Sequence record: NC_105618.1
DNA: 50,465 bases
Strand: one strand, 5' to 3'
DNA from: a phage
The notes beneath the pieces are model-generated. The model was given only the letters and a program-made list of their open reading frames with translations, searched no databases and had not been told where the DNA came from. The position numbers and the translations under genes were made by a program. Shown one piece after another: positions 4,225 to 50,465 of the stretch (its first letter is position 1; each line of letters begins with the position of its first letter).

Positions 4225-5337
4225 ATGAAGGCAAAGCAAAGATTCGATTCAGTAAAAATCAAGGCTCACTTTGATGATAACGGTTTTTTAGTTGACCGCC
4301 CAATCGTGGCGCGAATCGGCGCTCAGGTTTACAAAACGCCGCACGGCGATCGAGTTGAGTTCCGTCCGGCGTCCGAAGTTTTCAAGCAAGATTCCTTGCA
4401 AAGTTTTGCAGGCAAGCCGATCACAGTCGGTCACGTAACGGTGACACCCCAAAATGCTAAGGACGTTGTTGTCGGATCGTGTGCTGGCGCTGGTATTGCT
4501 TCAGGGGTTGGCGTTGAAGTTCCTTTGAGTATTTACAGCGACTACGCGATCAGCAAAGCTAAAGCGAAGGAGGCCGGGGAATTATCTGTAGGGTATACGT
4601 CGGTAGATATTGATAAGCCCGGCTGGGGTTCAAATGAGACTGGAGAATATATCTTCGAAGAGGATATGAAACAGGACGAAGCGCCGCCTGAAGGTTGGGT
4701 GAAATTCGACGCGGTACAAACTAATATCAAGGTCAACCATATTGCCCTAGTTTTTAAAGGTCGTGCGGGAATTGCTAAATTAAATCTTGATGCCGAACAG
4801 GAGTTCCCGTATGATAATAACGTTCAATTAACTAACGAGGACAAGCAAATGAAAAAAATTAAGATCGACTCAGTTGATGTGGAAGTAACCGAAGACGTTG
4901 CGAACCATATCGAAAAATTAACCGCGCAGATTGCCACCATTCAGGGGAAAGCTGATGGCTTCGAAGCTGAGCGCGATGCGCTGAAGGTTAAGGTTGACTC
5001 TCTGCCGGAACTTGTGAAGGCCGAGGTAGAGAAGCAAAAAGCCGATGCCGCCGCACGCGCAGAAGTTACCGCAGTAGCAGAAACCGCAGGCGTCAAACAT
5101 GATGGTCTTGATATCAAAGACGTCAAGATTGCCGTAGTTAAAGCCATGCTTGATAAAGATGTTAGTGAAAAATCAGACGCATATATCGACGCTATGTTTG
5201 ATGTTGCTAAAGATTCTGATATCATGGCTATTCAGCGTAAAGCAGTAAAAGGCGACTCTATCGAAGGCGGTAAGCCGGAAGAGAAAAACGACGCCGCGCC
5301 TGTTACGCCAAATTCACGTTTAAGTAAAGTAATGTAA
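4225..5337 (+). CDS. putative scaffolding / prohead protein
   Basis: AGGAGA RBS before in-frame ATG 4225; Ala/Glu/Lys-rich coiled-coil-like C-terminal half; lies between portal and capsid genes. Confidence 0.5.
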   Translation: MKAKQRFDSVKIKAHFDDNGFLVDRPIVARIGAQVYKTPHGDRVEFRPASEVFKQDSLQSFAGKPITVGHVTVTPQNAKDVVVGSCAGAGIASGVGVEVPLSIYSDYAISKAKAKEAGELSVGYTSVDIDKPGWGSNETGEYIFEEDMKQDEAPPEGWVKFDAVQTNIKVNHIALVFKGRAGIAKLNLDAEQEFPYDNNVQLTNEDKQMKKIKIDSVDVEVTEDVANHIEKLTAQIATIQGKADGFEAERDALKVKVDSLPELVKAEVEKQKADAAARAEVTAVAETAGVKHDGLDIKDVKIAVVKAMLDKDVSEKSDAYIDAMFDVAKDSDIMAIQRKAVKGDSIEGGKPEEKNDAAPVTPNSRLSKVM

Positions 5338-5885: not shown

Positions 5886-6653
5886 ATGGCTTACGAAAAT
5901 TTAATGTTGCGCCCGGCGTGCCCGGGAAATCTTTCTGATACTTCAGATTACAATATTGATGGTGCTTGCGTGGCTCAAGGTGACATTAAGTTCGGCTCGG
6001 CGGTTCAGGTTGTCGGTATCGTTGATGGTATAAAAGTTGTGGCGGCGCTTTCTGATGGTGGAACTCCTTACGGAATCGCTTTCCGTTCCCAATATGAACA
6101 CCTGAGCGGTAAAATCCTCGACGGTGAAGTGTGCAACGTCGTTTCTCACGGTCGCGTATGGACTCTTACTTCTCTTGGTGAGGCTCCCAGCTTGTTCTCA
6201 AAGTTACAGTTTGGGTCTGATGGAGTTGTTACTGGTGGATCTGGTTCCGCAGGTTGGACATTTGCGGGTGGCTTTGTTAAGCATGAAGATGGCTACATCA
6301 TTGAGGTTCAGGTGAAACAAAATTCTTTCATCGTTCCACCGCCTCCGCCCCCTGTCGTTCTTGTTGAATCCGCTGCAATCACCACTGACAAGGAAAGCCC
6401 TCAACCAAACAATGTTACGATCCAGTGTGTAGCTAATGTTCTTCCTGTAAATGCTGATGATAAAACTGGCAAGTGGTCAATCGACGCCATCAATATCGCC
6501 ACCATCGATCCGGACTCAGGCCTTGTGACTCCTGTTGGTGGGGAGACGGTCGGTGATTTCAATATCACATGGACTGCTAACGATGCCAGCAAGACGACAG
6601 CAACCATTGCTTATCGCGTAGAAGCAGTGCCAACTCCAGAGGTTGATGCATAA
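5886..6653 (+). CDS. capsid-associated structural protein with polyproline linker and Ig-like C-terminal domain
   Basis: N-terminal half paralogous to 5349-5825; PPPPPPP linker then beta-rich Ig-like region; own terminator. Confidence 0.45.
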   Translation: MAYENLMLRPACPGNLSDTSDYNIDGACVAQGDIKFGSAVQVVGIVDGIKVVAALSDGGTPYGIAFRSQYEHLSGKILDGEVCNVVSHGRVWTLTSLGEAPSLFSKLQFGSDGVVTGGSGSAGWTFAGGFVKHEDGYIIEVQVKQNSFIVPPPPPPVVLVESAAITTDKESPQPNNVTIQCVANVLPVNADDKTGKWSIDAINIATIDPDSGLVTPVGGETVGDFNITWTANDASKTTATIAYRVEAVPTPEVDA

Positions 6654-6744: not shown

Positions 6745-7704
6745 ATGACTACTAAAAAATTTGATGAAGCAGATAAAAGCAATGTTGAAATGTATCTGAT
6801 CCAGGCTGGCGTAAAACAGGATGCAGCCGCAACGATGGGTATCTGGACCGCTCAGGAACTACACCGCATCAAGAGCCAGTCCTATGAAGAAGACTACCCG
6901 GTCGGCTCCGCTCTACGAGTATTCCCGGTTACAACCGAACTCTCTCCGACCGACAAGACGTTTGAGTACATGACCTTTGATAAGGTTGGTACTGCTCAGA
7001 TTATCGCTGACTATACCGATGACCTGCCTCTGGTTGATGCACTTGGTACTTCTGAATTTGGTAAGGTGTTCCGTTTGGGTAACGCGTATCTGATCTCAAT
7101 CGACGAAATCAAAGCAGGTCAGGCAACTGGTCGCCCACTGTCAACCCGTAAGGCGAGCGCGTGCCAGTTGGCGCATGATCAGCTTGTTAACCGCCTGGTG
7201 TTCAAAGGTTCCGCGCCGCACAAGATCGTGTCCGTGTTCAACCATCCGAACATCACCAAAATTACCTCCGGTAAGTGGATGAATGTCTCAACTCCGAAGC
7301 CGGAAACGGCTGAAGCGGAATTGACTCAGGCGATTGAAACCATCGAGACGATTACTCGCGGTCAGCATCGTGCAACCAACATTCTGATCCCGCCGTCCAT
7401 GCGTAAGGTTCTGGCGATCCGTATGCCTGAAACTACCATGTCTTACCTGGACTATTTCAAGTCTCAGAATGCTGGTATCGAAATCGACTCTATCGCAGAG
7501 CTTGAAGATATCGACGGTGCGGGTACTAAAGGCGTACTGGTGTACGAAAAAAATCCGATGAATATGTCCATCGAGATCCCGGAAGCATTTAACATGCTGC
7601 CAGCGCAGCCGAAAGACCTTCACTTTAAAGTGCCTTGCACCTCCAAGTGTACTGGCCTTACAATTTATCGTCCGATGACTATTGTATTAATCACTGGCGT
7701 GTAA
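6745..7704 (+). CDS. major capsid protein
   Basis: about 320 aa, strong RBS, flanked by terminators, position after scaffold/decoration genes. Confidence 0.7.
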   Translation: MTTKKFDEADKSNVEMYLIQAGVKQDAAATMGIWTAQELHRIKSQSYEEDYPVGSALRVFPVTTELSPTDKTFEYMTFDKVGTAQIIADYTDDLPLVDALGTSEFGKVFRLGNAYLISIDEIKAGQATGRPLSTRKASACQLAHDQLVNRLVFKGSAPHKIVSVFNHPNITKITSGKWMNVSTPKPETAEAELTQAIETIETITRGQHRATNILIPPSMRKVLAIRMPETTMSYLDYFKSQNAGIEIDSIAELEDIDGAGTKGVLVYEKNPMNMSIEIPEAFNMLPAQPKDLHFKVPCTSKCTGLTIYRPMTIVLITGV

Positions 7705-9304: not shown

Positions 9305-9692
9305 GTTATCAGCGGCGGCGCGAGCCGCCTTTCTGTCGAAGTATAGAGACTTTCCTCACTACATGGAAAACAGGAACTTTACACCACCGAAGGATGGCGG
9401 CATGTGGCTAAGGTTCAACTACATTGAAGGGGATACGCTTTATCTATCAATTGACAGAAAGTGTAAATCTTACATTGCAATAGTTCAGATCGGAGTTGTG
9501 TTCCCTCCTGGTTCCGGCGTTGATGAGGCAAGATTGAAAGCAAAAGAGATTGCTGATTTTTTCAAAGATGGTAAAATGCTTAACGTTGGTTATATTTTCG
9601 AAGGTGCAATCGTGCATCAAATTGTTAAACACGAAAGCGGATGGATGATTCCGGTTCGCTTTACAGTACGAGTAGATACAAAGGAGACTTAA
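9294..9692 (+). CDS. putative tail terminator / completion protein
   Basis: position; AGGAGA RBS. Confidence 0.3.
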   Translation: MHYELSAAARAAFLSKYRDFPHYMENRNFTPPKDGGMWLRFNYIEGDTLYLSIDRKCKSYIAIVQIGVVFPPGSGVDEARLKAKEIADFFKDGKMLNVGYIFEGAIVHQIVKHESGWMIPVRFTVRVDTKET

Positions 9693-10453: not shown

Positions 10454-10475
10454 TTAACCAATCAGGAGAAATATC

Positions 10476-10793
10476 ATGGCTAAATTTAATTTCGTTCTTG
10501 GTCAACTTCCAGACTTCAAACTTCCAGTCACCTTCACCATGCCTAACGGTGAAGATGCAACGATCATTTTCACTGTACGCCACCTTTCCAGTAAAGAAGT
10601 TCAGGATATGTATGCCAACCAGGGAGAAATGAACGATAGCGAGTTCATTACCAAGATCGCGTCAGGATGGAACCTTGAAGAAGAATTTAACGAAGAAAAT
10701 GCGCGAAAACTGGTTCAGTATTATCCTTCAGCAGCGTACAACCTGACAGCGACTTACATCAAGGCTCTCGCCGGACACCGCGCAAAAAACTAA
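10476..10793 (+). CDS. tail assembly chaperone (G-like)
   Basis: small ORF directly upstream of tape measure, ending at slippery A_AAA_AAC heptamer. Confidence 0.6.
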   Translation: MAKFNFVLGQLPDFKLPVTFTMPNGEDATIIFTVRHLSSKEVQDMYANQGEMNDSEFITKIASGWNLEEEFNEENARKLVQYYPSAAYNLTATYIKALAGHRAKN

Positions 10794-11110
10794 AAAGGGC
10801 GGTCTATCTGTTATATCAGAAGCCGCCAACAGAGGAACAATTGCGATCGGTTGGCTTAAGTCTTTCCGACTATGAAGACGAGGAGCCTGAAACGATAATT
10901 GGCGACGCTGAAATGGTGAAGGCTTGGAATGTTTTTACATCAATGCTCACTCAGTGGAGAAGTTCAGGCGCTGGCGCTTACGGTCTTGATTATAATGTTT
11001 TGCCTATGTTGTTTAAAATCTATAAAATAGAAGATGAAGAACTGGCATTGCAGGACGTTAGGATCATGGAAGCGAAAGCGCTTGAAATGATTGCTAAGCA
11101 GAATAACTAA
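10476..11110 (+). CDS. tail assembly chaperone frameshift product (G-T-like fusion)
   Basis: -1 frame is open from 10790 to 11110 (track ORF 10841-11110); heptamer A_AAA_AAC at 10784-10790 just before the G stop. Confidence 0.5.
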
Positions 11111-14379: not shown

Positions 14380-14393
14380 CTACTCATAACAAA

Positions 14394-14418
14394 AGCCCGC
14401 CTTGCGCGGGTTTTTTTG
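14394..14418 (+). terminator. intrinsic terminator (copy 1 of duplicated module)
   Basis: GCCCGCCTTGCGCGGG then T7, followed by CTGTAGAATGG. Confidence 0.7.
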
Positions 14419-14458
14419 TAGCTGTAGAATGGTTGCTGGTAAACAAGAGGAAAAATCA

Positions 14459-15972: not shown

Positions 15973-16568
15973 ATGATGTAAAAGTAATCAAGTTATCCGG
16001 TTCGCTTGGTAGGCGCTTCGGTGTCTTTCACCGCTTTGCTGTTGACTCTTACCCTGAAGCCATTCGTGCGCTATCCAGTCAGGTAGATGGATTTAAAGAA
16101 TACATGCAGAGCGAGGTGGGATCACGTAGCAAGTTTGCAATATTTGTAGATGGCGTTAACGTTGGACACCATGAAGAGGAAAAATTCAAGTGCGCCAAAG
16201 AGATAAGGATTGTCCCGATCCCGACTGGTTCTAAGTCCGGCGGTCTATTCCAGGTTGTATTGGGTGCTGCAATAATGGTTGCGGCATTCTATACTGGCGG
16301 CGCATCTCTGGCGTTAATGGGCACAATGTCCTCATCACTGTTTATGATGGGCGGCGCTATGGTGCTGGGAGGCGTGATGCAGATGATTTCACCGCAGCCT
16401 GGAGGGGCAAACTTTGAAGTTCAATCAAGCAAGAATAAACCTTCGTACGCGTTCGGCGGTGCTGTCAATACGACGGCGGCGGGATACCCTCTCCCGGTCC
16501 CGTATGGATATCGCGCCGGAGGTGGCGCAACGTTCTCAGCAGGTTCCTATGCTGAGGATATGAGTTAA
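15969..16568 (+). CDS. tail assembly protein (lambda I-like)
   Basis: position before J-like gene; Gly/Ala-rich hydrophobic C-terminus. Confidence 0.55.
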   Translation: MNDVKVIKLSGSLGRRFGVFHRFAVDSYPEAIRALSSQVDGFKEYMQSEVGSRSKFAIFVDGVNVGHHEEEKFKCAKEIRIVPIPTGSKSGGLFQVVLGAAIMVAAFYTGGASLALMGTMSSSLFMMGGAMVLGGVMQMISPQPGGANFEVQSSKNKPSYAFGGAVNTTAAGYPLPVPYGYRAGGGATFSAGSYAEDMS

Positions 16569-16573
16569 AATAT

Positions 16574-16598
16574 ACCCGCCTTGCGCGGGTTTTTTTTC
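16574..16598 (+). terminator. intrinsic terminator (copy 2 of duplicated module)
   Basis: ACCCGCCTTGCGCGGGT then T8, followed by CTGTATAATGG. Confidence 0.7.
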
Positions 16599-16645
16599 GC
16601 CTGTATAATGGGTTCACCGATAAATAGCACAAAAAGGTAAACATC

Positions 16646-21324: not shown

Positions 21325-21851
21325 TTGTATGCCCTCGTCGTTAGTGTGTTTGAATTGTATGTCGCATTTACTTTTATTGCAATAGTTCGATTACAATTTT
21401 TTTCGCGTAACAGGTGTCTATTTTTGTAACTGGAAGTGGTGTTACAAAATCGACCTCATTCGACCGCAGGTAGATATGATAAAAACTCTATATAATATAT
21501 ATAGATAGATAATATTTAATTTTAGCTTTATATATATAATTATTGCTGTGTAACAGTTGTCTATCATGTAACAGGTGATTTGATTGATTCGTCAAATTTC
21601 TATCATATATGTTCAAAATTTAATCAATCTTGGTTCTATTCATGGATATCTGTGTATTTATAAGAAAAAGCGGTTACAAGTGTTACACAATATACACCAC
21701 ATAAAATCAAGGTTAATCTATTGATTCCATTGATGCTGGTTGTAACTTGAGCGATATAGACACACGATTACACACCAATTACATGTATTCGATTGACTAA
21801 ACGCTGTTAATGGCTATAATGGATTCATCGTAAACGAAGGAGATAAACGAA
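21325..21851. promoter_or_regulatory. AT-rich divergent control region with repeats
   Basis: 527 bp without ORFs; repeats GTAACAG(G/T)TGTCTAT and TCTATATAATATATATAG; contains sigma70-like promoter TTGACT-16-TATAAT. Confidence 0.6.
21793..21820 (+). promoter_or_regulatory. sigma70-like promoter for recombination operon
   Basis: TTGACT, 16 nt spacer, TATAAT, about 30 nt upstream of RBS of 21852 gene. Confidence 0.55.
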
Positions 21852-27310: not shown

Positions 27311-27350
27311 CCAAATAAAAAACGCGTAGAAGGATGTTAACCCGCTACGC
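27311..27350 (-). terminator. intrinsic terminator
   Basis: ACGCGTAG...CTACGCGT hairpin followed by T-run on minus strand. Confidence 0.55.
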
Positions 27351-27360
27351 GTCGTTTGTT

Positions 27361-27827: not shown

Positions 27828-27870
27828 AGCACTTTTTGCTAAAAACGTTTACTGTATGCCGTGTATTATA
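27828..27870 (+). promoter_or_regulatory. palindromic-motif promoter module (helicase operon)
   Basis: TAGCA-N5-TGCTA, 22 nt, TATTAT; overlaps RBS/start of divergent HTH gene. Confidence 0.5.
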
Positions 27871-27894
27871 TCGTAAACGATACAACGATTCAAA
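27866..27894 (-). promoter_or_regulatory. sigma70-like promoter of HTH regulator gene
   Basis: minus-strand TTGAAT, 17 nt spacer, TATAAT; approximate coordinates. Confidence 0.45.
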
Positions 27895-29926: not shown

Positions 29927-30339
29927 TTACAGATAAAGGCGATTACTTAGAGTTTTACGAGCGAGATCCTAGCGACACTCGAAAGGAGGACGCTCATCAA
30001 GTAGATTGCGTGTCCTGGTTGAAATACAATTTTCCTCAGCTTCTATTTTGGCACACAGTTAACGAAGGTGAAAAAACAATCACCTCGGCACTTAGGGATG
30101 AGCAGGCTGGATTGCTTAAAGGCGTATCAGACTTCGTTATCCTGATAGGTGTAAACTCACGCTACCCGTTTGCAGCTATCGAACTCAAGCGAGTTAATAA
30201 GTCCGGAAAAGGAAAGGCATCACCAGTCAGCGATAAGCAAAGGGAGTTTCTCAAAAAGGTTCGGGATCGCGGTGGATTCTCTGCCGTTGCATACGGATTT
30301 GAGCAATTCAAGCTGGCGATATACGATTTAACTAAATAG
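29923..30339 (+). CDS. VRR-NUC domain nuclease
   Basis: about 138 aa; GVSDFVIL ... IELK pattern consistent with a D...(D/E)XK core of VRR-NUC proteins. Confidence 0.6.
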   Translation: MITDKGDYLEFYERDPSDTRKEDAHQVDCVSWLKYNFPQLLFWHTVNEGEKTITSALRDEQAGLLKGVSDFVILIGVNSRYPFAAIELKRVNKSGKGKASPVSDKQREFLKKVRDRGGFSAVAYGFEQFKLAIYDLTK

Positions 30340-31368: not shown

Positions 31369-31402
31369 TTGCTAAAAATACCCGGCGAAAGTCGGGTATA
31401 GT
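31360..31402 (+). promoter_or_regulatory. palindromic-motif promoter module
   Basis: CAGCA-N5-TGCTA, 22 nt, TATAGT inside hairpin ACCCG...CGGGT. Confidence 0.5.
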
Positions 31403-36921: not shown

Positions 36922-36948
36922 CACAATAAACTCCTTAGTTGACGGTGT

Positions 36949-36993
36949 AAATGATACACCGCCAATGGTACACGCGTTTTGCAAAAAGTGCTA
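36949..36993 (-). promoter_or_regulatory. palindromic-motif promoter module
   Basis: minus strand TAGCA-N5-TGCAA, then hairpin CGGTGT...ACACCG with TATCAT. Confidence 0.45.
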
Positions 36994-37414: not shown

Positions 37415-37450
37415 TGCGTTAACTCCTGATTGGTTATCTTGAATAAGGTC

Positions 37451-37496
37451 ACTTTATCAAATGACCTTACGGCAATATTAACAAATCGTGCTATTT
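37451..37496 (-). promoter_or_regulatory. palindromic-motif promoter module
   Basis: minus strand TAGCA-N5-TGTTA, 22 nt, TAAAGT in hairpin AAGGTCA...TGACCTT. Confidence 0.45.
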
Positions 37497-37961: not shown

Positions 37962-38013
37962 TGGGAGTAATATACCTTACTCCCTGTTTATTGTCTTTAG
38001 CAATTAGTGCTAT
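37962..38013 (-). promoter_or_regulatory. palindromic-motif promoter module
   Basis: minus strand TAGCA-N5-TGCTA, then hairpin GGGAGTAAG...CTCCC with TATATT. Confidence 0.45.
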
Positions 38014-39707: not shown

Positions 39708-39750
39708 AATATACCCCGATTACCTTCGGGGCGTTTAGCAATTCGTGCTA
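39708..39750 (-). promoter_or_regulatory. palindromic-motif promoter module
   Basis: minus strand TAGCA-N5-TGCTA, 22 nt, TATATT in hairpin CCCCGAAGG...CGGGG. Confidence 0.45.
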
Positions 39751-40086: not shown

Positions 40087-40124
40087 TTTCCTGCCCCTGA
40101 TGTGTATCTCGTTTCGATGAGGTA

Positions 40125-40167
40125 ATTATGCCAAATCACACCGATCGAGTTTTAACAAAAAGTGCTA
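40125..40167 (-). promoter_or_regulatory. palindromic-motif promoter module
   Basis: minus strand TAGCA-N5-TGTTA, 22 nt, CATAAT; overlaps 3' end of methyltransferase ORF. Confidence 0.45.
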
Positions 40168-41092: not shown

Positions 41093-41701
41093 TTCCAATA
41101 ATTGCTCATTATTCCATCAATAGTGGAATAGTTGGAATAATTGCGATCCCGATTGATCTCGAATGATGAAACGTGATTATTGCATGGTGTGCAACAGTTG
41201 GTTGATTTGTTGCTGAGAATGCAATGATTGTGAGAGGGAGGATTTAGTGTTACCCGGTTCGCCTGGTAGTCATCTCCATTTTTAGCAAAAAGTGCTATCG
41301 ATTACACTTTAACTTGTCACGACTGTAATATTTGTCTAGAATCGCCATTGTGACAAAATTACACACTGTGACGCCTCTAAATATACATATAGATATATGT
41401 ATCTATATAATATATATAGTGTTTTTTTTATTTATATATATAGATAATTATATTGTAATAGCTGTGTATAGTTGTCTTACATTGTCTAGCGTACTGTTGG
41501 CATATTTCTATCTGCATGTTTATATATACAGTAATTTTTTGTGAGCTATATATTTCTATAGTGACTCTATACAGCTAGACAAATGTTACACAGCTTAAAA
41601 TTGGCTCGCAGGCGTTGACATATCTGCATTGCGCTGTCACAATGGCAATTGTTGACGCGTTATGACACCATTTACACACGAATAGACAAAGAGGTTATAT
41701 T
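41084..41701. promoter_or_regulatory. AT-rich divergent control region with repeats
   Basis: about 618 bp without ORFs of 60 aa or more; shares TCTATATAATATATATAG and GCTGTGTA..AGTTGTCT blocks with 21325-21851; GGAATA(A/G)TTG repeats. Confidence 0.6.
41283..41297. promoter_or_regulatory. isolated palindromic motif in control region
   Basis: TAGCA-AAAAG-TGCTA with no -10-like hexamer at the usual spacing. Confidence 0.35.
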
Positions 41702-42217
41702 ATGAGCAATACCAATCAGGAATTAAAAATCACCGACATGATTCGACTAACCTGCGACGCAATGTATCGCGACAAAGGCATGAGTGAGTTCTCTTTCGTG
41801 GCTGATGATATGGCCCTGGAAGGCGCGCGATTCTATTTCCGCAATCAGGATGTAAGCGATAGCGATCTTGAGTCTGCCGCTGCCGGATGGGTGGACCAGA
41901 ACCAGGCGGAGGTAGAGAAGCGATTCAAGTCTGCTTTCATCACTCCGATCATCACCCGTCACTTTTGCAAATATGGCAAGGTGGCAAAGGTTAAGGTAGG
42001 CCGAAATGACGCAGCAATCACAATGATAACGGTTATCGTTACAGACGAAGAGGTTCCTGTGAAGAAGCGCCGCAGTCGGAAAAAAGTTAGCCTGGCCGAC
42101 TGCCTGGACTCGTTTGACGTTGATGTTAGTAAGATGGGCGATAGCGAGTTAATGGTTCGCGATGTAAATGAGATCGTGCGCCAGATGAAAGCGCATATCG
42201 AAAAGTGTGGACTGTGA
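41702..42217 (+). CDS. hypothetical protein
   Basis: track ORF, AGAGG RBS. Confidence 0.45.
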   Translation: MSNTNQELKITDMIRLTCDAMYRDKGMSEFSFVADDMALEGARFYFRNQDVSDSDLESAAAGWVDQNQAEVEKRFKSAFITPIITRHFCKYGKVAKVKVGRNDAAITMITVIVTDEEVPVKKRRSRKKVSLADCLDSFDVDVSKMGDSELMVRDVNEIVRQMKAHIEKCGL

Positions 42218-42232
42218 GCACTGAACGGTAAA

Positions 42233-42275
42233 TAGCACTTTTTGTTAAAACCGGATCGGGATGGCTTGGTATAGT
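42233..42275 (+). promoter_or_regulatory. palindromic-motif promoter module
   Basis: TAGCA-N5-TGTTA, 22 nt, TATAGT in hairpin GGGAT...ATCCC. Confidence 0.5.
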
Positions 42276-42306
42276 TATCCCATCGGCAACGAATTAGGAA
42301 ACGAAG

Positions 42307-42501
42307 ATGGAAACGCAAATTGACGTAGTGGTTGTTCAGCGCGATTCAACTCACGAGAAGGGTCTGTTCAAGAAAGGAACCAAAATCACTATCGACCTTG
42401 AGGATATGGTTGCGTATCACTCGGGTCTTACCTGGAATGTGGTGCGAGTTGGCAGCGACTACAAACTCAAAGGCTTTAACACTTACTTTGCTGAGGCTTA
42501 A
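42307..42501 (+). CDS. hypothetical protein
   Basis: track ORF. Confidence 0.4.
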   Translation: METQIDVVVVQRDSTHEKGLFKKGTKITIDLEDMVAYHSGLTWNVVRVGSDYKLKGFNTYFAEA

Positions 42502-42503
42502 TC

Positions 42504-42971
42504 ATGACGACTATCACCGTATTTCTGGCTAAAGATGAATTGGACGGCGAAATGTCATTCTTCGCGTTCGAGCATAAAACCGGATCGCACTGGCACACGT
42601 ACACTCATTACACGGTCATCGCAATTGAGGCTTACGACGGCGATTTCACTGACAAGCTGAGTAATTTTATTGAAGCGGTTAAGGCTGGCGACGGCTGCGA
42701 GTGGAAAGAAGATCATGAAGTTATGCGAATGTATGAGATGATTGATCCGGTTCGCCTTGAGTCTTTCGAGCTTGGTTCTGGCGTGACCATTAAGGTGAGA
42801 AAGTCGGGTGAGTTATTGCCAGGAATGCGTGTGCTGACTGGTTACTCAGGACGTAAGGTATGGCGCACTGTATCCAAGATTCGCCAGCGATCGGCAACAT
42901 GCTACAGCGTATTCTTTGAAGATGGTTGGAATATGATGTCAGGAAGTGAAGTGAAGTATCTCACCAAATAG
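42504..42971 (+). CDS. hypothetical protein
   Basis: track ORF, coupled to upstream gene. Confidence 0.45.
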   Translation: MTTITVFLAKDELDGEMSFFAFEHKTGSHWHTYTHYTVIAIEAYDGDFTDKLSNFIEAVKAGDGCEWKEDHEVMRMYEMIDPVRLESFELGSGVTIKVRKSGELLPGMRVLTGYSGRKVWRTVSKIRQRSATCYSVFFEDGWNMMSGSEVKYLTK

Positions 42972-43011
42972 CACGAATTGTTAAAACAGGATCGGGGTAT
43001 CTTGCTATAGT
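42969..43011 (+). promoter_or_regulatory. palindromic-motif promoter module
   Basis: TAGCA-N5-TGTTA, 22 nt, TATAGT in hairpin GGGGTA...TACCCC. Confidence 0.5.
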
Positions 43012-43049
43012 TACCCCATTGAAACGAGATACCAATCAGAGGAATTACA

Positions 43050-43313
43050 ATGTCAATCGTCAAGAATCGCAAAGCAATCGAAGCTACCCGTCACAACAAG
43101 CAATACGCGATTTTCATCTCCCGCCACTGCTCAAACATCAATGGTGGCGTGCAGTATCGCCGCTATGCAGTGATTGAGCTTTCCCCGTACATTTACAAGG
43201 AGTATCGCGAAGAAAAAGGTAAGTGGGTTGAGATTGAAGGTTTAACGAGTTTCTTGATATGGAATGGTGAATTTCAGGGTTATGACGATATCAGCACTTT
43301 AATTGAGGAATAA
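43050..43313 (+). CDS. hypothetical protein
   Basis: track ORF; CCAATCAGAGGA leader. Confidence 0.45.
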   Translation: MSIVKNRKAIEATRHNKQYAIFISRHCSNINGGVQYRRYAVIELSPYIYKEYREEKGKWVEIEGLTSFLIWNGEFQGYDDISTLIEE

Positions 43314-43833: not shown

Positions 43834-44025
43834 ATGGCTGATTTTATGCACCAAATGATTGCAGTATTCAAAGGCAGTGATGATGAGGAAGTTAAAGAGT
43901 GCTTTACCGTTGACAAGCCTTATAACGCGTCACTAACCAGCTTCGGGAATATCTCATTGCTTGATGATAATGGCGATCCCTGGATATTCGACGAAGACAC
44001 TGATTGCTTCGAGATTAAAGAATAG
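43834..44025 (+). CDS. small acidic protein
   Basis: 63 aa, Asp/Glu-rich. Confidence 0.35.
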   Translation: MADFMHQMIAVFKGSDDEEVKECFTVDKPYNASLTSFGNISLLDDNGDPWIFDEDTDCFEIKE

Positions 44026-44066
44026 CACTTTTTGTTAAAACTCAATATTGGGGTTGCGATATAGTA
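44024..44066 (+). promoter_or_regulatory. palindromic-motif promoter module
   Basis: TAGCA-N5-TGTTA, 22 nt, TATAGT. Confidence 0.5.
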
Positions 44067-44096
44067 ACTCCATCGACAACGAACGAGGACGAGAAC

Positions 44097-44585: not shown

Positions 44586-44626
44586 GCACGAATTGTTAAA
44601 AGGGGATTTGGCCTGACTGGTATAAT
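44584..44626 (+). promoter_or_regulatory. palindromic-motif promoter module
   Basis: AAGCA-N5-TGTTA, 22 nt, TATAAT in hairpin GGGGAT...ATCCCC. Confidence 0.5.
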
Positions 44627-44657
44627 CCCCTACATCAACCACTAAGAGGAAGTCATT

Positions 44658-45228: not shown

Positions 45229-45271
45229 TAGCACGAATTGCTAAACCTTCCGCAAGGCCATTTGATATAGT
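45229..45271 (+). promoter_or_regulatory. palindromic-motif promoter module
   Basis: TAGCA-N5-TGCTA, 22 nt, TGaTATAGT in hairpin AGGCCA...TGGCCT. Confidence 0.5.
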
Positions 45272-45310
45272 GGCCTTATTGAAGCAGGGCAACCAATCAG
45301 AGGAATCATC

Positions 45311-45598
45311 ATGAGCAAGAATCATAAGTTAAAAATTGCCCCGGTCCATTTCATCGGTGTAATGAACGGCACCAAAACGGCAGAGTTCCGCATCAATGAC
45401 CGCAACTTCCAGGTTGGTGATATCCTTGAGCTACGAGAGTTCGATCGCGATGAGTTTACCGGGTGGGAAGTTCACGCTAGGGTATCCGATGTTACAGACG
45501 TGACTCCTTACATCGATCGCGGGTATGACGAGCAACAGTGCGACTTCACGCAGTACGTGATGTTATCAATCAAACCTTACAGATGGGTTAGACCATGA
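45311..45598 (+). CDS. hypothetical protein (possible ASCH/PUA-like fold)
   Basis: 95 aa; pattern AEFRINDRNFQVGDILELRE; assignment by pattern only. Confidence 0.35.
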   Translation: MSKNHKLKIAPVHFIGVMNGTKTAEFRINDRNFQVGDILELREFDRDEFTGWEVHARVSDVTDVTPYIDRGYDEQQCDFTQYVMLSIKPYRWVRP

Positions 45599-46240: not shown

Positions 46241-46274
46241 GGGGAATCGGCTCTGAGCGGTTCCCCTTTCTTTT
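46241..46274 (+). terminator. intrinsic terminator
   Basis: GGGGAA...TTCCCC hairpin then TTTCTTTT. Confidence 0.55.
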
Positions 46275-46584: not shown

Positions 46585-46627
46585 TAGCACGAATTGCTAA
46601 AACCTATCAAGGGGAATGCGCTATGAT
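46585..46627 (+). promoter_or_regulatory. palindromic-motif promoter module
   Basis: TAGCA-N5-TGCTA, 22 nt, TATGAT in hairpin GGGGAAT...ATTCCCC. Confidence 0.5.
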
Positions 46628-46657
46628 TCCCCTACACCAAAAAACGAGGGAACACTC

Positions 46658-47104: not shown

Positions 47105-47147
47105 TAGCACGAATTGCTAAAACTTGCTCAAGGGTATTTGATAGAAT
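47105..47147 (+). promoter_or_regulatory. palindromic-motif promoter module
   Basis: TAGCA-N5-TGCTA, 22 nt, TAGAAT in hairpin. Confidence 0.5.
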
Positions 47148-47186
47148 GCCCTTCGTTGAGTTAAGCAACCAATCAGAGGAATTACT

Positions 47187-47390
47187 ATGAAAACTATTAA
47201 CGGAATGAGCAACGAAACGAGAACGCAGATCGTTAACATGCTAATCGGTATGGCTGACGATATTCAGAATAGCCAGGTCGTTATTGATTCATGCAATCAG
47301 ACTCGCGAGAGTAAATTTGAATCATCCGGCTACAAAATTGTTGAAGAAGAATTAACCATCAAAATCATTCGCGTACAGGAGAAAGCATAA
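47187..47390 (+). CDS. hypothetical protein
   Basis: track ORF; CCAATCAGAGGA leader. Confidence 0.4.
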   Translation: MKTINGMSNETRTQIVNMLIGMADDIQNSQVVIDSCNQTRESKFESSGYKIVEEELTIKIIRVQEKA

Positions 47391-48031: not shown

Positions 48032-48604
48032 ATGAAAACAGCTATCATTTTAAACGGTGCGCCTGGTGCGGGAAAAGACACTATAGGGTGCATCCTGGCT
48101 GACACTTACGATCATGTAGCGCTACGCAGCTTTAAAGCTCCAATGTTTGAGATTGCCCGAGCAATCTTGGGTGAGACTAATTTCGAGTATTTCATGTTCT
48201 TGTATGAGGACCGTCGCTATAAAGAAGAGCCAGCATCAATCCTGAACGGTAAAAGCCCACGCCAGTTTATGATCTGGATTAGCGAGGAGGTCATCAAGCC
48301 GCAGTTCGGAAATCGCTTCTTCGGTATGCGAGCGGAAAGCAAGGTGAAAGAGTCGCACTCCCTTTCGGTATTTACTGACGGTGGATTCAAAGATGAGATC
48401 CTACAAATGATTGAAGGTGATATCCAGGTTAAGCTATGTCGAATCCATCGCAACGGTTGCAGCTTTGATAACGACAGCCGAGACTATATCTATCTTGACG
48501 ATATGATCGGGGTCAACGGTTATCAGGAATGTGACTTCTTTTCTGTCGAAGGCCATCCAGAAATTACCGCTCAGCACATAGCCGCCACGTTCATCAACAA
48601 GTAG
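48032..48604 (+). CDS. P-loop kinase (polynucleotide kinase or dNMP kinase-like)
   Basis: Walker A GAPGAGKDT. Confidence 0.6.
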   Translation: MKTAIILNGAPGAGKDTIGCILADTYDHVALRSFKAPMFEIARAILGETNFEYFMFLYEDRRYKEEPASILNGKSPRQFMIWISEEVIKPQFGNRFFGMRAESKVKESHSLSVFTDGGFKDEILQMIEGDIQVKLCRIHRNGCSFDNDSRDYIYLDDMIGVNGYQECDFFSVEGHPEITAQHIAATFINK

Positions 48605-48644
48605 CACGAATTGCTAAAACGTCGGTGGGGTGATTTGATATAGT
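48602..48644 (+). promoter_or_regulatory. palindromic-motif promoter module
   Basis: TAGCA-N5-TGCTA, 22 nt, TGaTATAGT. Confidence 0.5.
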
Positions 48645-48676
48645 TACCTCATCGACAACGAAGAGAGAAAATCGAA

Positions 48677-50381: not shown

Positions 50382-50389
50382 TAAACACT

Positions 50390-50413
50390 AACCCGCTTCG
50401 GCGGGTTTTTTTA
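50390..50413 (+). terminator. intrinsic terminator
   Basis: ACCCGC-TTCG-GCGGGT hairpin then T7. Confidence 0.7.
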
Positions 50414-50424
50414 TGCCTGCAATA

Positions 50425-50447
50425 TGGTAAAATAGCAATAAATGTTA
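50425..50447 (+). promoter_or_regulatory. extended -10 promoter plus palindromic operator upstream of gene at position 1
   Basis: TGgTAAAAT followed by TAGCA-N5-TGTTA, then AGAGGA RBS completed by ATG at position 1. Confidence 0.45.
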
Positions 50448-50465
50448 AACAAAGAGGATGGATTT

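Follow-up and report, generated by a model that had tools for sequence, protein, structure and literature searches.

Covarying sense-strand stem-loops around the −10 element of repeated promoter-like modules in a T1-like phage genome

The window studied here, meaning the whole of a 50,465-nucleotide (nt) stretch of DNA (record NC_105618.1), is the 50.5-kb genome of a T1-like siphophage (Tunavirus, Drexlerviridae). It contains about 22 copies of a canonical module, distributed over both strands and located by a repeat search and a pattern scan, in which a palindrome (TAGCA-N5-TG(C/T)TA) is followed by AAA, about 20 nt of spacer, a −10-like hexamer usually preceded by TGn, and a conserved leader with a ribosome-binding site. 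Analysis of these modules and of their counterparts in related phages demonstrated a stem-loop, built from the spacer upstream of the hexamer and the discriminator downstream of it, that is real, far beyond chance and maintained by selection. The structure is specific for the sense strand, and a role in RNA is supported. The interpretation that we favor, and to which we give about an even chance of being correct, is that an intercistronic RNA stem-loop has been superimposed on an activator-type extended −10 promoter.

RESULTS

An initial annotation of this genome had claimed that the −10-like hexamers sit inside hairpins whose stems differ in sequence between copies while base pairing is kept. 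Pairing between the two arms was assessed by a permutation test in which every spacer of the window was paired with every discriminator. Cognate arms gave −8.4 kcal/mol, compared with −4.6 kcal/mol for non-cognate arms (z = −7.6; 0/100,000 permutations). In an ungapped alignment of 20 window copies, with columns 26-32 set against columns 43-49, 66.4% of positions were paired versus 54.6% after shuffling, and the covariation score was 0.445 versus 0.245 (0/500 shuffles), with slid registers scoring 0.15-0.30. The claim of covariation between copies was, hence, borne out. All five stems quoted in the annotation were recovered, namely GGGAT/ATCCC in module 42233 (modules are designated by their start positions, as listed in Table 1), GGGGTA/TACCCC in module 42969, AGGCCA/TGGCCT in module 45229, GGGGAAT/ATTCCCC in module 46585 and, on the minus strand, CCCCG/CGGGG in module 39750.

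Related phages were then considered. A pattern scan of IMG/VR with the 21-nt repeat that includes the palindrome gave mainly chance matches, and a locus search anchored on the polynucleotide kinase (Pnk) gene was used instead. This search yielded 72 viral contigs with Pnk proteins of 56-98% identity, containing 734 modules, of which 556 were unique. A gapless Watson-Crick helix of at least 5 bp between spacer and discriminator was present in 57% of the unique modules but in only 22.5% of chimeras. The modules were clustered by downstream gene into 206 groups (non-homologous genes, 73 contigs), each of which was represented by one member. The mean fold of these representatives was −11.3 kcal/mol, versus −5.4 kcal/mol with shuffled arms, and z was below −2 in 70% of them. 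A permutation test performed contig by contig gave a median z of −4.2, with values below −2 in 52 of 55 contigs, indicating that the covariation extends to the related phages.

Comparison of orthologous sites gave the same result. Among the orthologues of module 42233, 83.9% of stem positions were paired versus 64.0% in shuffled alignments, and the covariation score was 0.619 versus 0.230, with slid registers at 0.07-0.20. These orthologues carry differing stems in one register, including GGGATAAC/GTTATCCC, GAGGCGAT/ATTGCCTC, GGGGTA/TACCCC and GGGGTTA/TAGCCCC, and the same outcome was obtained for 150 further modules. Changes on both sides of the stem were detected in many orthologue groups (for example, TGCGCGCT/AGTGCGCA versus GGCGCACT/AGTGCGCC). 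In pairs of close orthologues, stem positions were substituted less often than neighboring free positions (4.4% versus 7.2%; p = 9e-4). As would be expected of a structured RNA under selection, compensatory and wobble-tolerant changes exceeded both the shuffled and the slid controls, and they were accompanied by a strand asymmetry.

This asymmetry was apparent in several comparisons. The non-Watson-Crick pairs within the helices were mostly G·T or T·G rather than A·C or C·A (77 versus 10 in raw counts). With one count per position per gene group, G·U pairs outnumbered A·C pairs by 50 to 8, a ratio that departs both from an even split (p = 1.6e-8) and from that of the chimeras (p = 0.0012). Changes between Watson-Crick and G·U pairs were more frequent among close orthologues than changes to A·C (30 versus 11; p = 0.004). 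Of 202 cases, the fold of the sense strand was the more stable in 154 and the less stable in 48; in shuffled sequences, the antisense strand had a slight advantage. When the site in module 42233 was folded with DNA parameters, values of −5.6 kcal/mol (sense) and −4.5 kcal/mol (antisense) were obtained, which were indistinguishable from those of shuffled sequences (z of about −0.9). The excess of G·U pairs, the stability of the sense strand and the weakness of the DNA folds support a structure acting in RNA, in agreement with a hint to that effect in the initial annotation; the slower evolution of the stems, and the stronger hairpins found where a same-strand gene ends at the module (see below), point the same way. 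A search of the whole window against Rfam 15 returned no matches at the gathering threshold.

The sequence of the module resembles a particular class of promoter. Information content over 496 unique modules peaked at G35 (1.63 bits), A38 (1.96 bits) and T42 (1.79 bits), corresponding to the G−14, A−11 and T−7 signature of the sigma70 extended −10 element (TGnTAnnnT), and a conserved A (position 49; 1.22 bits) lies 7 nt past the hexamer, at the predicted +1 (e.g., 42282, 43018 and 44072). The module is, therefore, predicted to be a sigma70 extended −10 promoter, with its start site placed from the geometry of sigma70 promoters. The spacer between palindrome and hexamer is 22 nt; the hexamer stood at a fixed offset from the palindrome in 18 of the 23 window copies as first scanned, and this offset was 37 nt in 644 of the 734 modules of the relatives. 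A standard −35/−10 promoter was considered and rejected, as TTGCTA is 22 nt rather than 17 nt from the hexamer and is, hence, not a −35 box. A generic promoter scan of the window found no excess of sites. The center of the palindrome would fall near −42, the position of a class II activator. Downstream of the modules, the ATCGAnAACGA leader alternates with a second conserved type (ACCAATCAGAGGAAT..ATG), found at 43031-43052, 45292-45313, 47168-47189 and 10457-10478.

The palindrome corresponds to a repeat described previously. A 2024 re-annotation of phage TLS reported a 21-nt direct repeat, aaATAGCACnnnTTGnTAAAA, that occurs 21 times, some 76 nt before start codons; there are 18-21 copies per genome, oriented with transcription, and the repeat is also present in T1, Rtp and Rogue1 (PMC11447400). 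The palindrome part of the window module is the same element, with the same consensus and orientation. Module 42233 carries it as AAATAGCACTTTTTGTTAAAA, and its start codon (42307) is 74 nt from the T of TAGCAC. The left half-site is nearly always TAGCA, while position 12 (e.g., 42245) is C (204 modules) or T (148) and almost never a purine, so that the right half-site reads TGCTA or TGTTA. The initial annotation had proposed that the TGTTA half-site keeps its pairing through G-U wobble. Combinations of position 2 (e.g., 42235) with position 12 agreed with this, G-T being present 157 times and A-C once; where position 2 was A, position 12 was T in 7 of 8 modules. This pattern mimics wobble tolerance in a 5-bp RNA hairpin and is not obviously predicted by a symmetric DNA-binding dimer.

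Module 42233 illustrates how the stem-loop is fitted to the promoter. It lies in the rightward early region, between open reading frames (ORFs) 41702-42217 and 42307-42501. Its fold comprises CCGG (42251-42254), GGGATGGCT (42258-42266), the loop TGGTAT (42267-42272), AGTTATCCC (42273-42281) and TCGG (42283-42286). The inner stem, in RNA form GGGAUGGCU/AGUUAUCCC with the loop UGGUAU, contains two G·U pairs. A stem specific to the module, hence, joins spacer to discriminator with the −10 element in the loop; the hexamer TATAGT (42270-42275) is divided equally between the loop and the 3′ arm. Folds with z of −2 or lower were detected in 16 of the 22 canonical window modules relative to controls in which spacer and discriminator were shuffled separately (Table 1). 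Compensatory variation was also evident for individual sites: relatives of module 44023 have TGTGGTT/AACCACA, and module 45229 has a paralogue at 37493 with AAGGTCA/TGACCTT.

Table 1. Modules, promoter elements and hairpins of the window, and hairpins labelled as terminators in a related record
Feature	Module	Coordinates	Strand	−10 element	Fold (kcal/mol)	z	Remarks
Module starts		27827, 30337, 31360, 33348, 42233, 42969, 44023, 44584, 45229, 46585, 47105, 48602	+				
Module starts		41092, 40167, 39750, 39128, 38012, 37493, 36993, 27376, 10453, 6689	-				
Palindrome TAGCA-CTTTT-TGTTA	42233	42233..42247	+				Within the 21-nt repeat; center about −42 from predicted start
Extended −10 TGG-TATAGT	42233	42267..42275	+				In hairpin loop and 3′ arm; 37-nt offset from palindrome
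Predicted transcription start, conserved A	42233	42282	+				7 nt past hexamer; hairpin nearly all upstream
Hairpin	42233	42251..42286	+		−17.0	−2.9	RNA fold
Hairpin GGGGTA/TACCCC	42969	42994..43017	+	43006-43011	−11.7	−2.3	
Hairpin GGGGTT/AACTCC	44023	44049..44072	+	44060-44065	−12.8	−2.8	G·U pair; antisense −4.3
Hairpin AGGGGATT/AATCCCCT	44584	44601..44631	+	44621-44626	−16.6	−3.5	
Hairpin AAGGCCA/TGGCCTT	45229	45247..45284	+	45266-45271	−16.0	−4.1	
Hairpin AGGGGAAT/ATTCCCCT	46585	46610..46633	+	46622-46627	−12.9	−4.5	
Hairpin AAGGGTAT/ATGCCCTT	47105	47126..47161	+	47142-47147	−15.0	−4.8	U·G pair; antisense −7.4
Hairpin GTCGGTGGGGTGA/TTACCTCATCGAC	48602	48621..48656	+	48639-48644	−22.4	−6.0	Antisense −8.0
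Hairpin CGTTTAC/GTAAACG	27827	27846..27879	+	27864-27869	−9.3	−3.0	A+T-rich stem
Class B hairpin ATACCCGGC/GTCGGGTAT	31360	31378..31399	+		−14.8	−4.7	Within spacer; 3′ arm into −10
Class B hairpin GCCCCGA/TCGGGGT	39750	39713..39732	-	39713-39708	−12.4	−2.7	Abuts −10
Hairpin, outer stem TCGAT/ATCGA plus inner stem	40167	40114..40148	-	40130-40125	−10.5	−2.3	
Hairpin GGGAGTAA/TTACTCCC	38012	37963..37984	-	37974-37969	−12.8	−4.7	
Hairpin AAGGTCA/TGACCTT	37493	37439..37475	-	37456-37451	−14.8	−4.6	
Hairpin	36993	36939..36965	-	36956-36951	−16.1	−4.0	Overlaps −10
Hairpin GACGCGTAG/CTACGCGTT		27321..27353	-	Weak −10-like TAACAT, enclosed	−17.2	−4.4	Followed by T-run
Promoter-embedded hairpins labelled terminators, without U-tracts (OL960582.1)		5155-5188, 6214-6244, 7497-7530, 9591-9624, 10880-10925					

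Three types of module were distinguished among the 206 representatives. Class A, with at least 4 pairs spanning the −10 element, accounted for 121 (59%); in class B (42 representatives), the spacer alone contains a G+C-rich hairpin, the 3′ arm of which extends into the hexamer, as in window modules 31360 and 39750; and the remaining 43 were weak or unfolded. The placement of the hexamer in the loop or 3′ arm, as originally described, was thus correct for most modules but not for the roughly one-fifth in which the hairpin abuts the −10 element or for the similar fraction in which it is weak or absent. Helices were 5-13 bp long and loops 6-16 nt. Modules 6689 and 10453 (minus strand) have a full palindrome and −10-like boxes and are antisense within the plus-strand structural gene block; their hairpins are weak or missing, and antisense promoters or relics are possible interpretations.

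The 3′ end of the stem falls at the predicted +1 or slightly beyond it, by a few nucleotides. The stem would, therefore, be absent from the module's own transcript and present only in RNA that reads through from upstream. Read-through is expected, as no canonical terminator on the plus strand was detected by a scan from 41.7 to 46.2 kb. The only strong canonical plus-strand terminator in the rightward early block is at 46241-46266 (GGGGAATCGG..CGGTTCCCC plus TTTCTTTT) and splits the block into two read-through units. The upstream gene frequently terminates inside the palindrome: of 458 modules in the relatives, 250 use the TAG of TAGCAC as this stop codon and 66 the TAA of GCTAAAA, and in the window such codons are present at 42969-42971, 44023-44025, 48602-48604 and 30337-30339 (TAG) and at 46598-46600 (TAA). 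The hairpin would, hence, form about 20-30 nt behind the terminating ribosome. Folds were stronger where a same-strand ORF ended at the module (−12.3 versus −8.2 kcal/mol; p = 4e-10), a suggestive difference given that the context classes are crude; only this contrast, same-strand ORF versus the rest, was used, as the "intragenic" class was inflated by spurious open frames and unreliable.

Hairpins in this position invite comparison with terminators. The stem-loops are G+C-rich, as in a canonical intrinsic terminator, but the U-tract is missing: only 0-1 T was present in the 8 nt after the stem in 110 of the 121 class A hairpins, and the consensus tail is ATCGAnAACGA. Exceptions were two hairpins with 7 T and the hairpin at 27321-27353 of the window, which looks like a canonical terminator at the position of a module hairpin. 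A canonical terminator was rejected on the ground of the missing U-tracts. An antisense terminator was also rejected, as the T-run on the complementary strand begins several nucleotides after the stem in most modules. In GenBank record OL960582.1 (SA12KD), orthologous hairpins are labelled "rho-independent terminator" on the basis of WebGeSTer and TransTermHP (Table 1). This label is probably erroneous, and other T1-like records may carry it too.

True terminators were detected in the late region, placed directly against extended −10 boxes at 14387-14432, 16566-16611 and 50382-50427. In these late units (14387-14432, 16566-16641 and 50382-50449), the terminator ACCCGC..GCGGGTTTTTTT is followed within 4-5 nt by an extended −10 element (TGTAGAAT, TGTATAAT and TGCAATAT). 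Fitting a 3′ hairpin into the promoter that follows is, therefore, a general feature of this genome. Two of the late −10 elements have a TAGCA-N5-like palindrome downstream of them (16625 and 50433), beside the start codon and not at −42; one binding factor might repress at the late units and activate at the early modules.

DISCUSSION

These analyses are consistent with each module being a promoter of the sigma70 extended −10 type, with a palindrome fixed near −42 for a putative activator, on which promoter an intercistronic RNA element has been overlaid. A sense-strand stem-loop would be built from the spacer (about −30 to −16) and the discriminator (−6 to −1, at times to +6), these being the only unconstrained positions of an intergenic module of about 75 nt that must also encode a stop codon, the palindrome, the −10 element, the start site, a leader and a ribosome-binding site. 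The stem would be transcribed only when polymerase reads through from an upstream promoter, and the hairpin would then mark the end of the upstream cistron in a polycistronic RNA, as an intercistronic or 3′ untranslated region element. Its probable role is that of a barrier to 3′-exonucleases or of a processing boundary, protecting the 3′ side of the upstream cistron; the initial annotation had suggested a processing or stability element. The hairpin may, in addition, keep the C-rich discriminator RNA from Rho loading or from pairing with the next Shine-Dalgarno sequence. We infer the promoter function, the start site and the read-through from the sequence, and the molecular role is a guess.

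Several points weigh against this interpretation. Strong hairpins are retained by about 45% of the modules for which no same-strand ORF was obvious upstream, as judged by crude ORF classes. Many single substitutions break pairs; close relatives showed 37 cases in which a Watson-Crick pair had become a mismatch. The calculated effect on the Shine-Dalgarno sequence was small, its unpaired probability in silico being 0.49 in the native form, 0.45 after shuffling of the 5′ arm and 0.53 in the primary transcript; insulation of this sequence is, hence, kept as a minor possibility. The strict wrapping of the −10 element in 59% of modules may mean more than packing constraints. G·T is the least destabilizing DNA mismatch, and a hairpin in the non-template DNA strand would produce a similar, weaker asymmetry. 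Finally, a search of the available literature for promoter, start-site or transcriptome data on T1 or the Drexlerviridae found only the TLS re-annotation and no transcript 5′ or 3′ ends for any T1-like phage; promoter activity, read-through and RNA ends are inferred.

Among the alternatives, the one that survives best, while still unlikely, is that the hairpins are leaky factor-independent terminators or attenuators that end or thin upstream transcription just before the next promoter. Their location just past the upstream stop codon fits, the OL960582 record labels them accordingly, and the late-region units do use true terminators abutting extended −10 boxes. T-runs are also found in some copies (27321-27353 in the window and, in TLS, terminator T62 directly after repeat DR12), and the class B hairpins are followed by the U-rich sequence UAUUAU. 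However, efficient intrinsic termination by Escherichia coli RNA polymerase requires a U-tract, which the great majority of class A stems lack (110 of 121, with their ATCGAnAACGA tail). Furthermore, the TLS re-annotation lists only terminators with U-tracts and places none at the other repeats.

A slightly smaller chance is given to the hairpin taking an active part in a promoter with two states or in an RNA switch, rather than being a passive feature of the mRNA. In the first case, folding of the non-template strand would offer the −10 element single-stranded to host sigma70, an N4-like device used with the host polymerase; in the second, the read-through hairpin together with the palindrome hairpin would be bound by a T1 early protein that reprograms the polymerase or the fate of the mRNA at every cistron boundary.

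A promoter structure acting at the level of DNA appears improbable. It would take the form of a cruciform or a non-template-strand hairpin that shows the −10 element single-stranded to sigma70 in a supercoiling-dependent manner, in the way of the N4 early promoters. The geometry is indeed tied to the promoter, with the stem spanning exactly the −10 element in 59% of modules, and better −10 boxes accompany stronger folds (rho = −0.19; p = 0.006). The favored strand is the non-template strand, which is the one that sigma70 reads in single-stranded form, and G·T is the mildest of the DNA mismatches. Against this, the DNA hairpins of module 42233 are weak on both strands, and 5- to 9-bp stems closing loops of 6-16 nt would, from known energetics, be poor formers of cruciforms, which would have to melt about 36 bp for this small gain. 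A cruciform needs both strands, but the antisense strand folds less well and carries A·C mismatches. In addition, the 5′ arm (−30 to −16) stays duplex in the open complex, the hairpin is wholly upstream of the −10 element in about 20% of modules, and hairpin strength tracks the upstream gene. No ORF of the window exceeds 1150 amino acids, the length of the largest, which leaves no place for an N4-like virion RNA polymerase. The "structured promoter" offered as an alternative role in the initial annotation is, for these reasons, not favored.

It is more doubtful still that a phage protein recognizes the hairpin, perhaps together with a palindrome hairpin, as an RNA site at every cistron boundary, where it could alter the polymerase or the fate of the mRNA, as at an antitermination site of the nut/boxB type or a translational operator. 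The loop sequence is conserved while the stem is variable, the palindrome shares the preference for G·U over A·C described above (including A-T in 7 of the 8 cases in which position 2 is A), and most early proteins are without known function. The sigma70 extended −10 profile, however, fully explains the conservation of the loop, the rigid 22-nt spacing from palindrome to −10 element points to a role in DNA, and the palindrome hairpin has only 5 bp. Pfam analysis of ten early ORFs identified only DUF3850/ASCH and DUF7180, and no RNA-binding regulator apart from the generic ASCH/DUF3850 protein; Rfam, likewise, supplied no family.

A non-functional by-product of shared ancestry of the modules, of G-rich and C-rich composition or of quasi-palindrome template switching is very improbable and largely refuted, since, despite a consensus rich in G at positions 25-30 and in C at 45-48, helices of at least 5 bp in 22% of chimeras and the ability of template switching to mimic compensatory change, it is contradicted by the cognate-arm tests (window and 52 of 55 relatives), by unrelated stem sequences at orthologous sites, by the lower substitution rate in stems and by a strand-specific G·U excess that is expected neither from composition, for which shuffled sequences behave in the opposite manner, nor from strand-symmetric template switching.

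The preferred arrangement, an intercistronic RNA stem-loop laid over an extended −10 promoter, shares features with several known systems. Class II extended −10 promoters, such as those dependent on CRP or FNR with a site near −41.5, also have TGnTAnnnT and no usable −35 element at 17 bp, and the module palindrome has a 10-bp spacing of half-sites and a center at about −42. The module differs in the covarying stem-loop over its spacer and discriminator, and its activator is only putative. The N4 early promoters and Frpo of the F plasmid similarly have a promoter element with a short stem-loop in which the stem can vary. N4 hairpins have a 5- to 7-bp stem and a 3-nt loop and are extruded from DNA with SSB for a phage RNA polymerase of about 3500 amino acids. 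In contrast, the module loops of 6-16 nt hold a sigma70 −10 element, no such polymerase gene is present, and the mismatches point to RNA. The terminator-promoter "transcriptons" of the T1 late region resemble the modules in having a G+C-rich hairpin just past a stop codon and against or inside the next promoter, but the early-module hairpins are without U-tracts and most enclose the −10 element rather than precede it. Repetitive extragenic palindromic (REP) elements and the hairpins that RNase III cleavage leaves between T7 early genes, which fix 3′ ends or shield the RNA from exonucleases, likewise provide a stem-loop per cistron boundary of a polycistronic RNA, with variable stems conserved by pairing only. 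The module stems (5-11 bp, in helices of 5-13 bp) are too short for T7-type RNase III sites (about 20 bp or more), and overlap with a promoter core is unusual. Finally, nut/boxB sites are downstream of the promoter that they serve, whereas the module hairpin is upstream of its own predicted start.

The 21-nt repeat is already known, and so are promoters of the extended −10 type, the packing of terminators against promoters and stem-loops between cistrons. The TLS paper left the function of the repeat open (a stoperator, an enhancer site or an UP-like element), noted that no RNA polymerase or sigma gene is present, and treated the 21-mer alone, with no fixed-distance extended −10 element, predicted start, stem-loop or covariation (PMC11447400). 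Neither Rfam, nor the reference annotation of T1, nor the literature that could be searched contained a family-wide covarying sense-strand stem-loop around the −10 element of about 20 promoters per genome. T1 belongs to the classic T phages, and phages of its type are frequent contaminants and candidates for therapy, but their transcription program is essentially unmapped; recent re-annotations contain only about three sigma70 promoters and leave the repeat unexplained. The repeat is now tied to about 20 predicted extended −10 promoters of fixed geometry per genome, which carry a second, structural layer of information kept by compensatory evolution across the family, and the labelling of these hairpins in databases as Rho-independent terminators can be corrected. 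With a stop codon, a putative protein-binding palindrome, a predicted promoter core and an RNA stem-loop encoded in one 75-nt segment, the module is an unusually clean natural example of such overlap and gives the T1 transcription program a concrete, testable architecture.

Some features of the surrounding genome may be added. Identity with T1 is about 95% in the structural genes, and across the early region (41-46 kb) relatives such as IME18, pSf-2 and Shfl1 share about 88%. The divergent intergenic region at 41300-41700 is A+T-rich (about 39% G+C) and contains several near-consensus sigma70 −35/−10 pairs, such as TTGACA-17-CACAAT at 41615, which are probably immediate-early promoters, active ahead of the synthesis of any phage factor; ATATA-rich repeats are present there and also at 21495. 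ORF 45311-45598 encodes a DUF3850/ASCH (PUA-like) domain and is named "RNA-binding protein" in RefSeq relatives. It is, apart from Pnk and a methylase, the sole early protein with an annotation related to nucleic acids.

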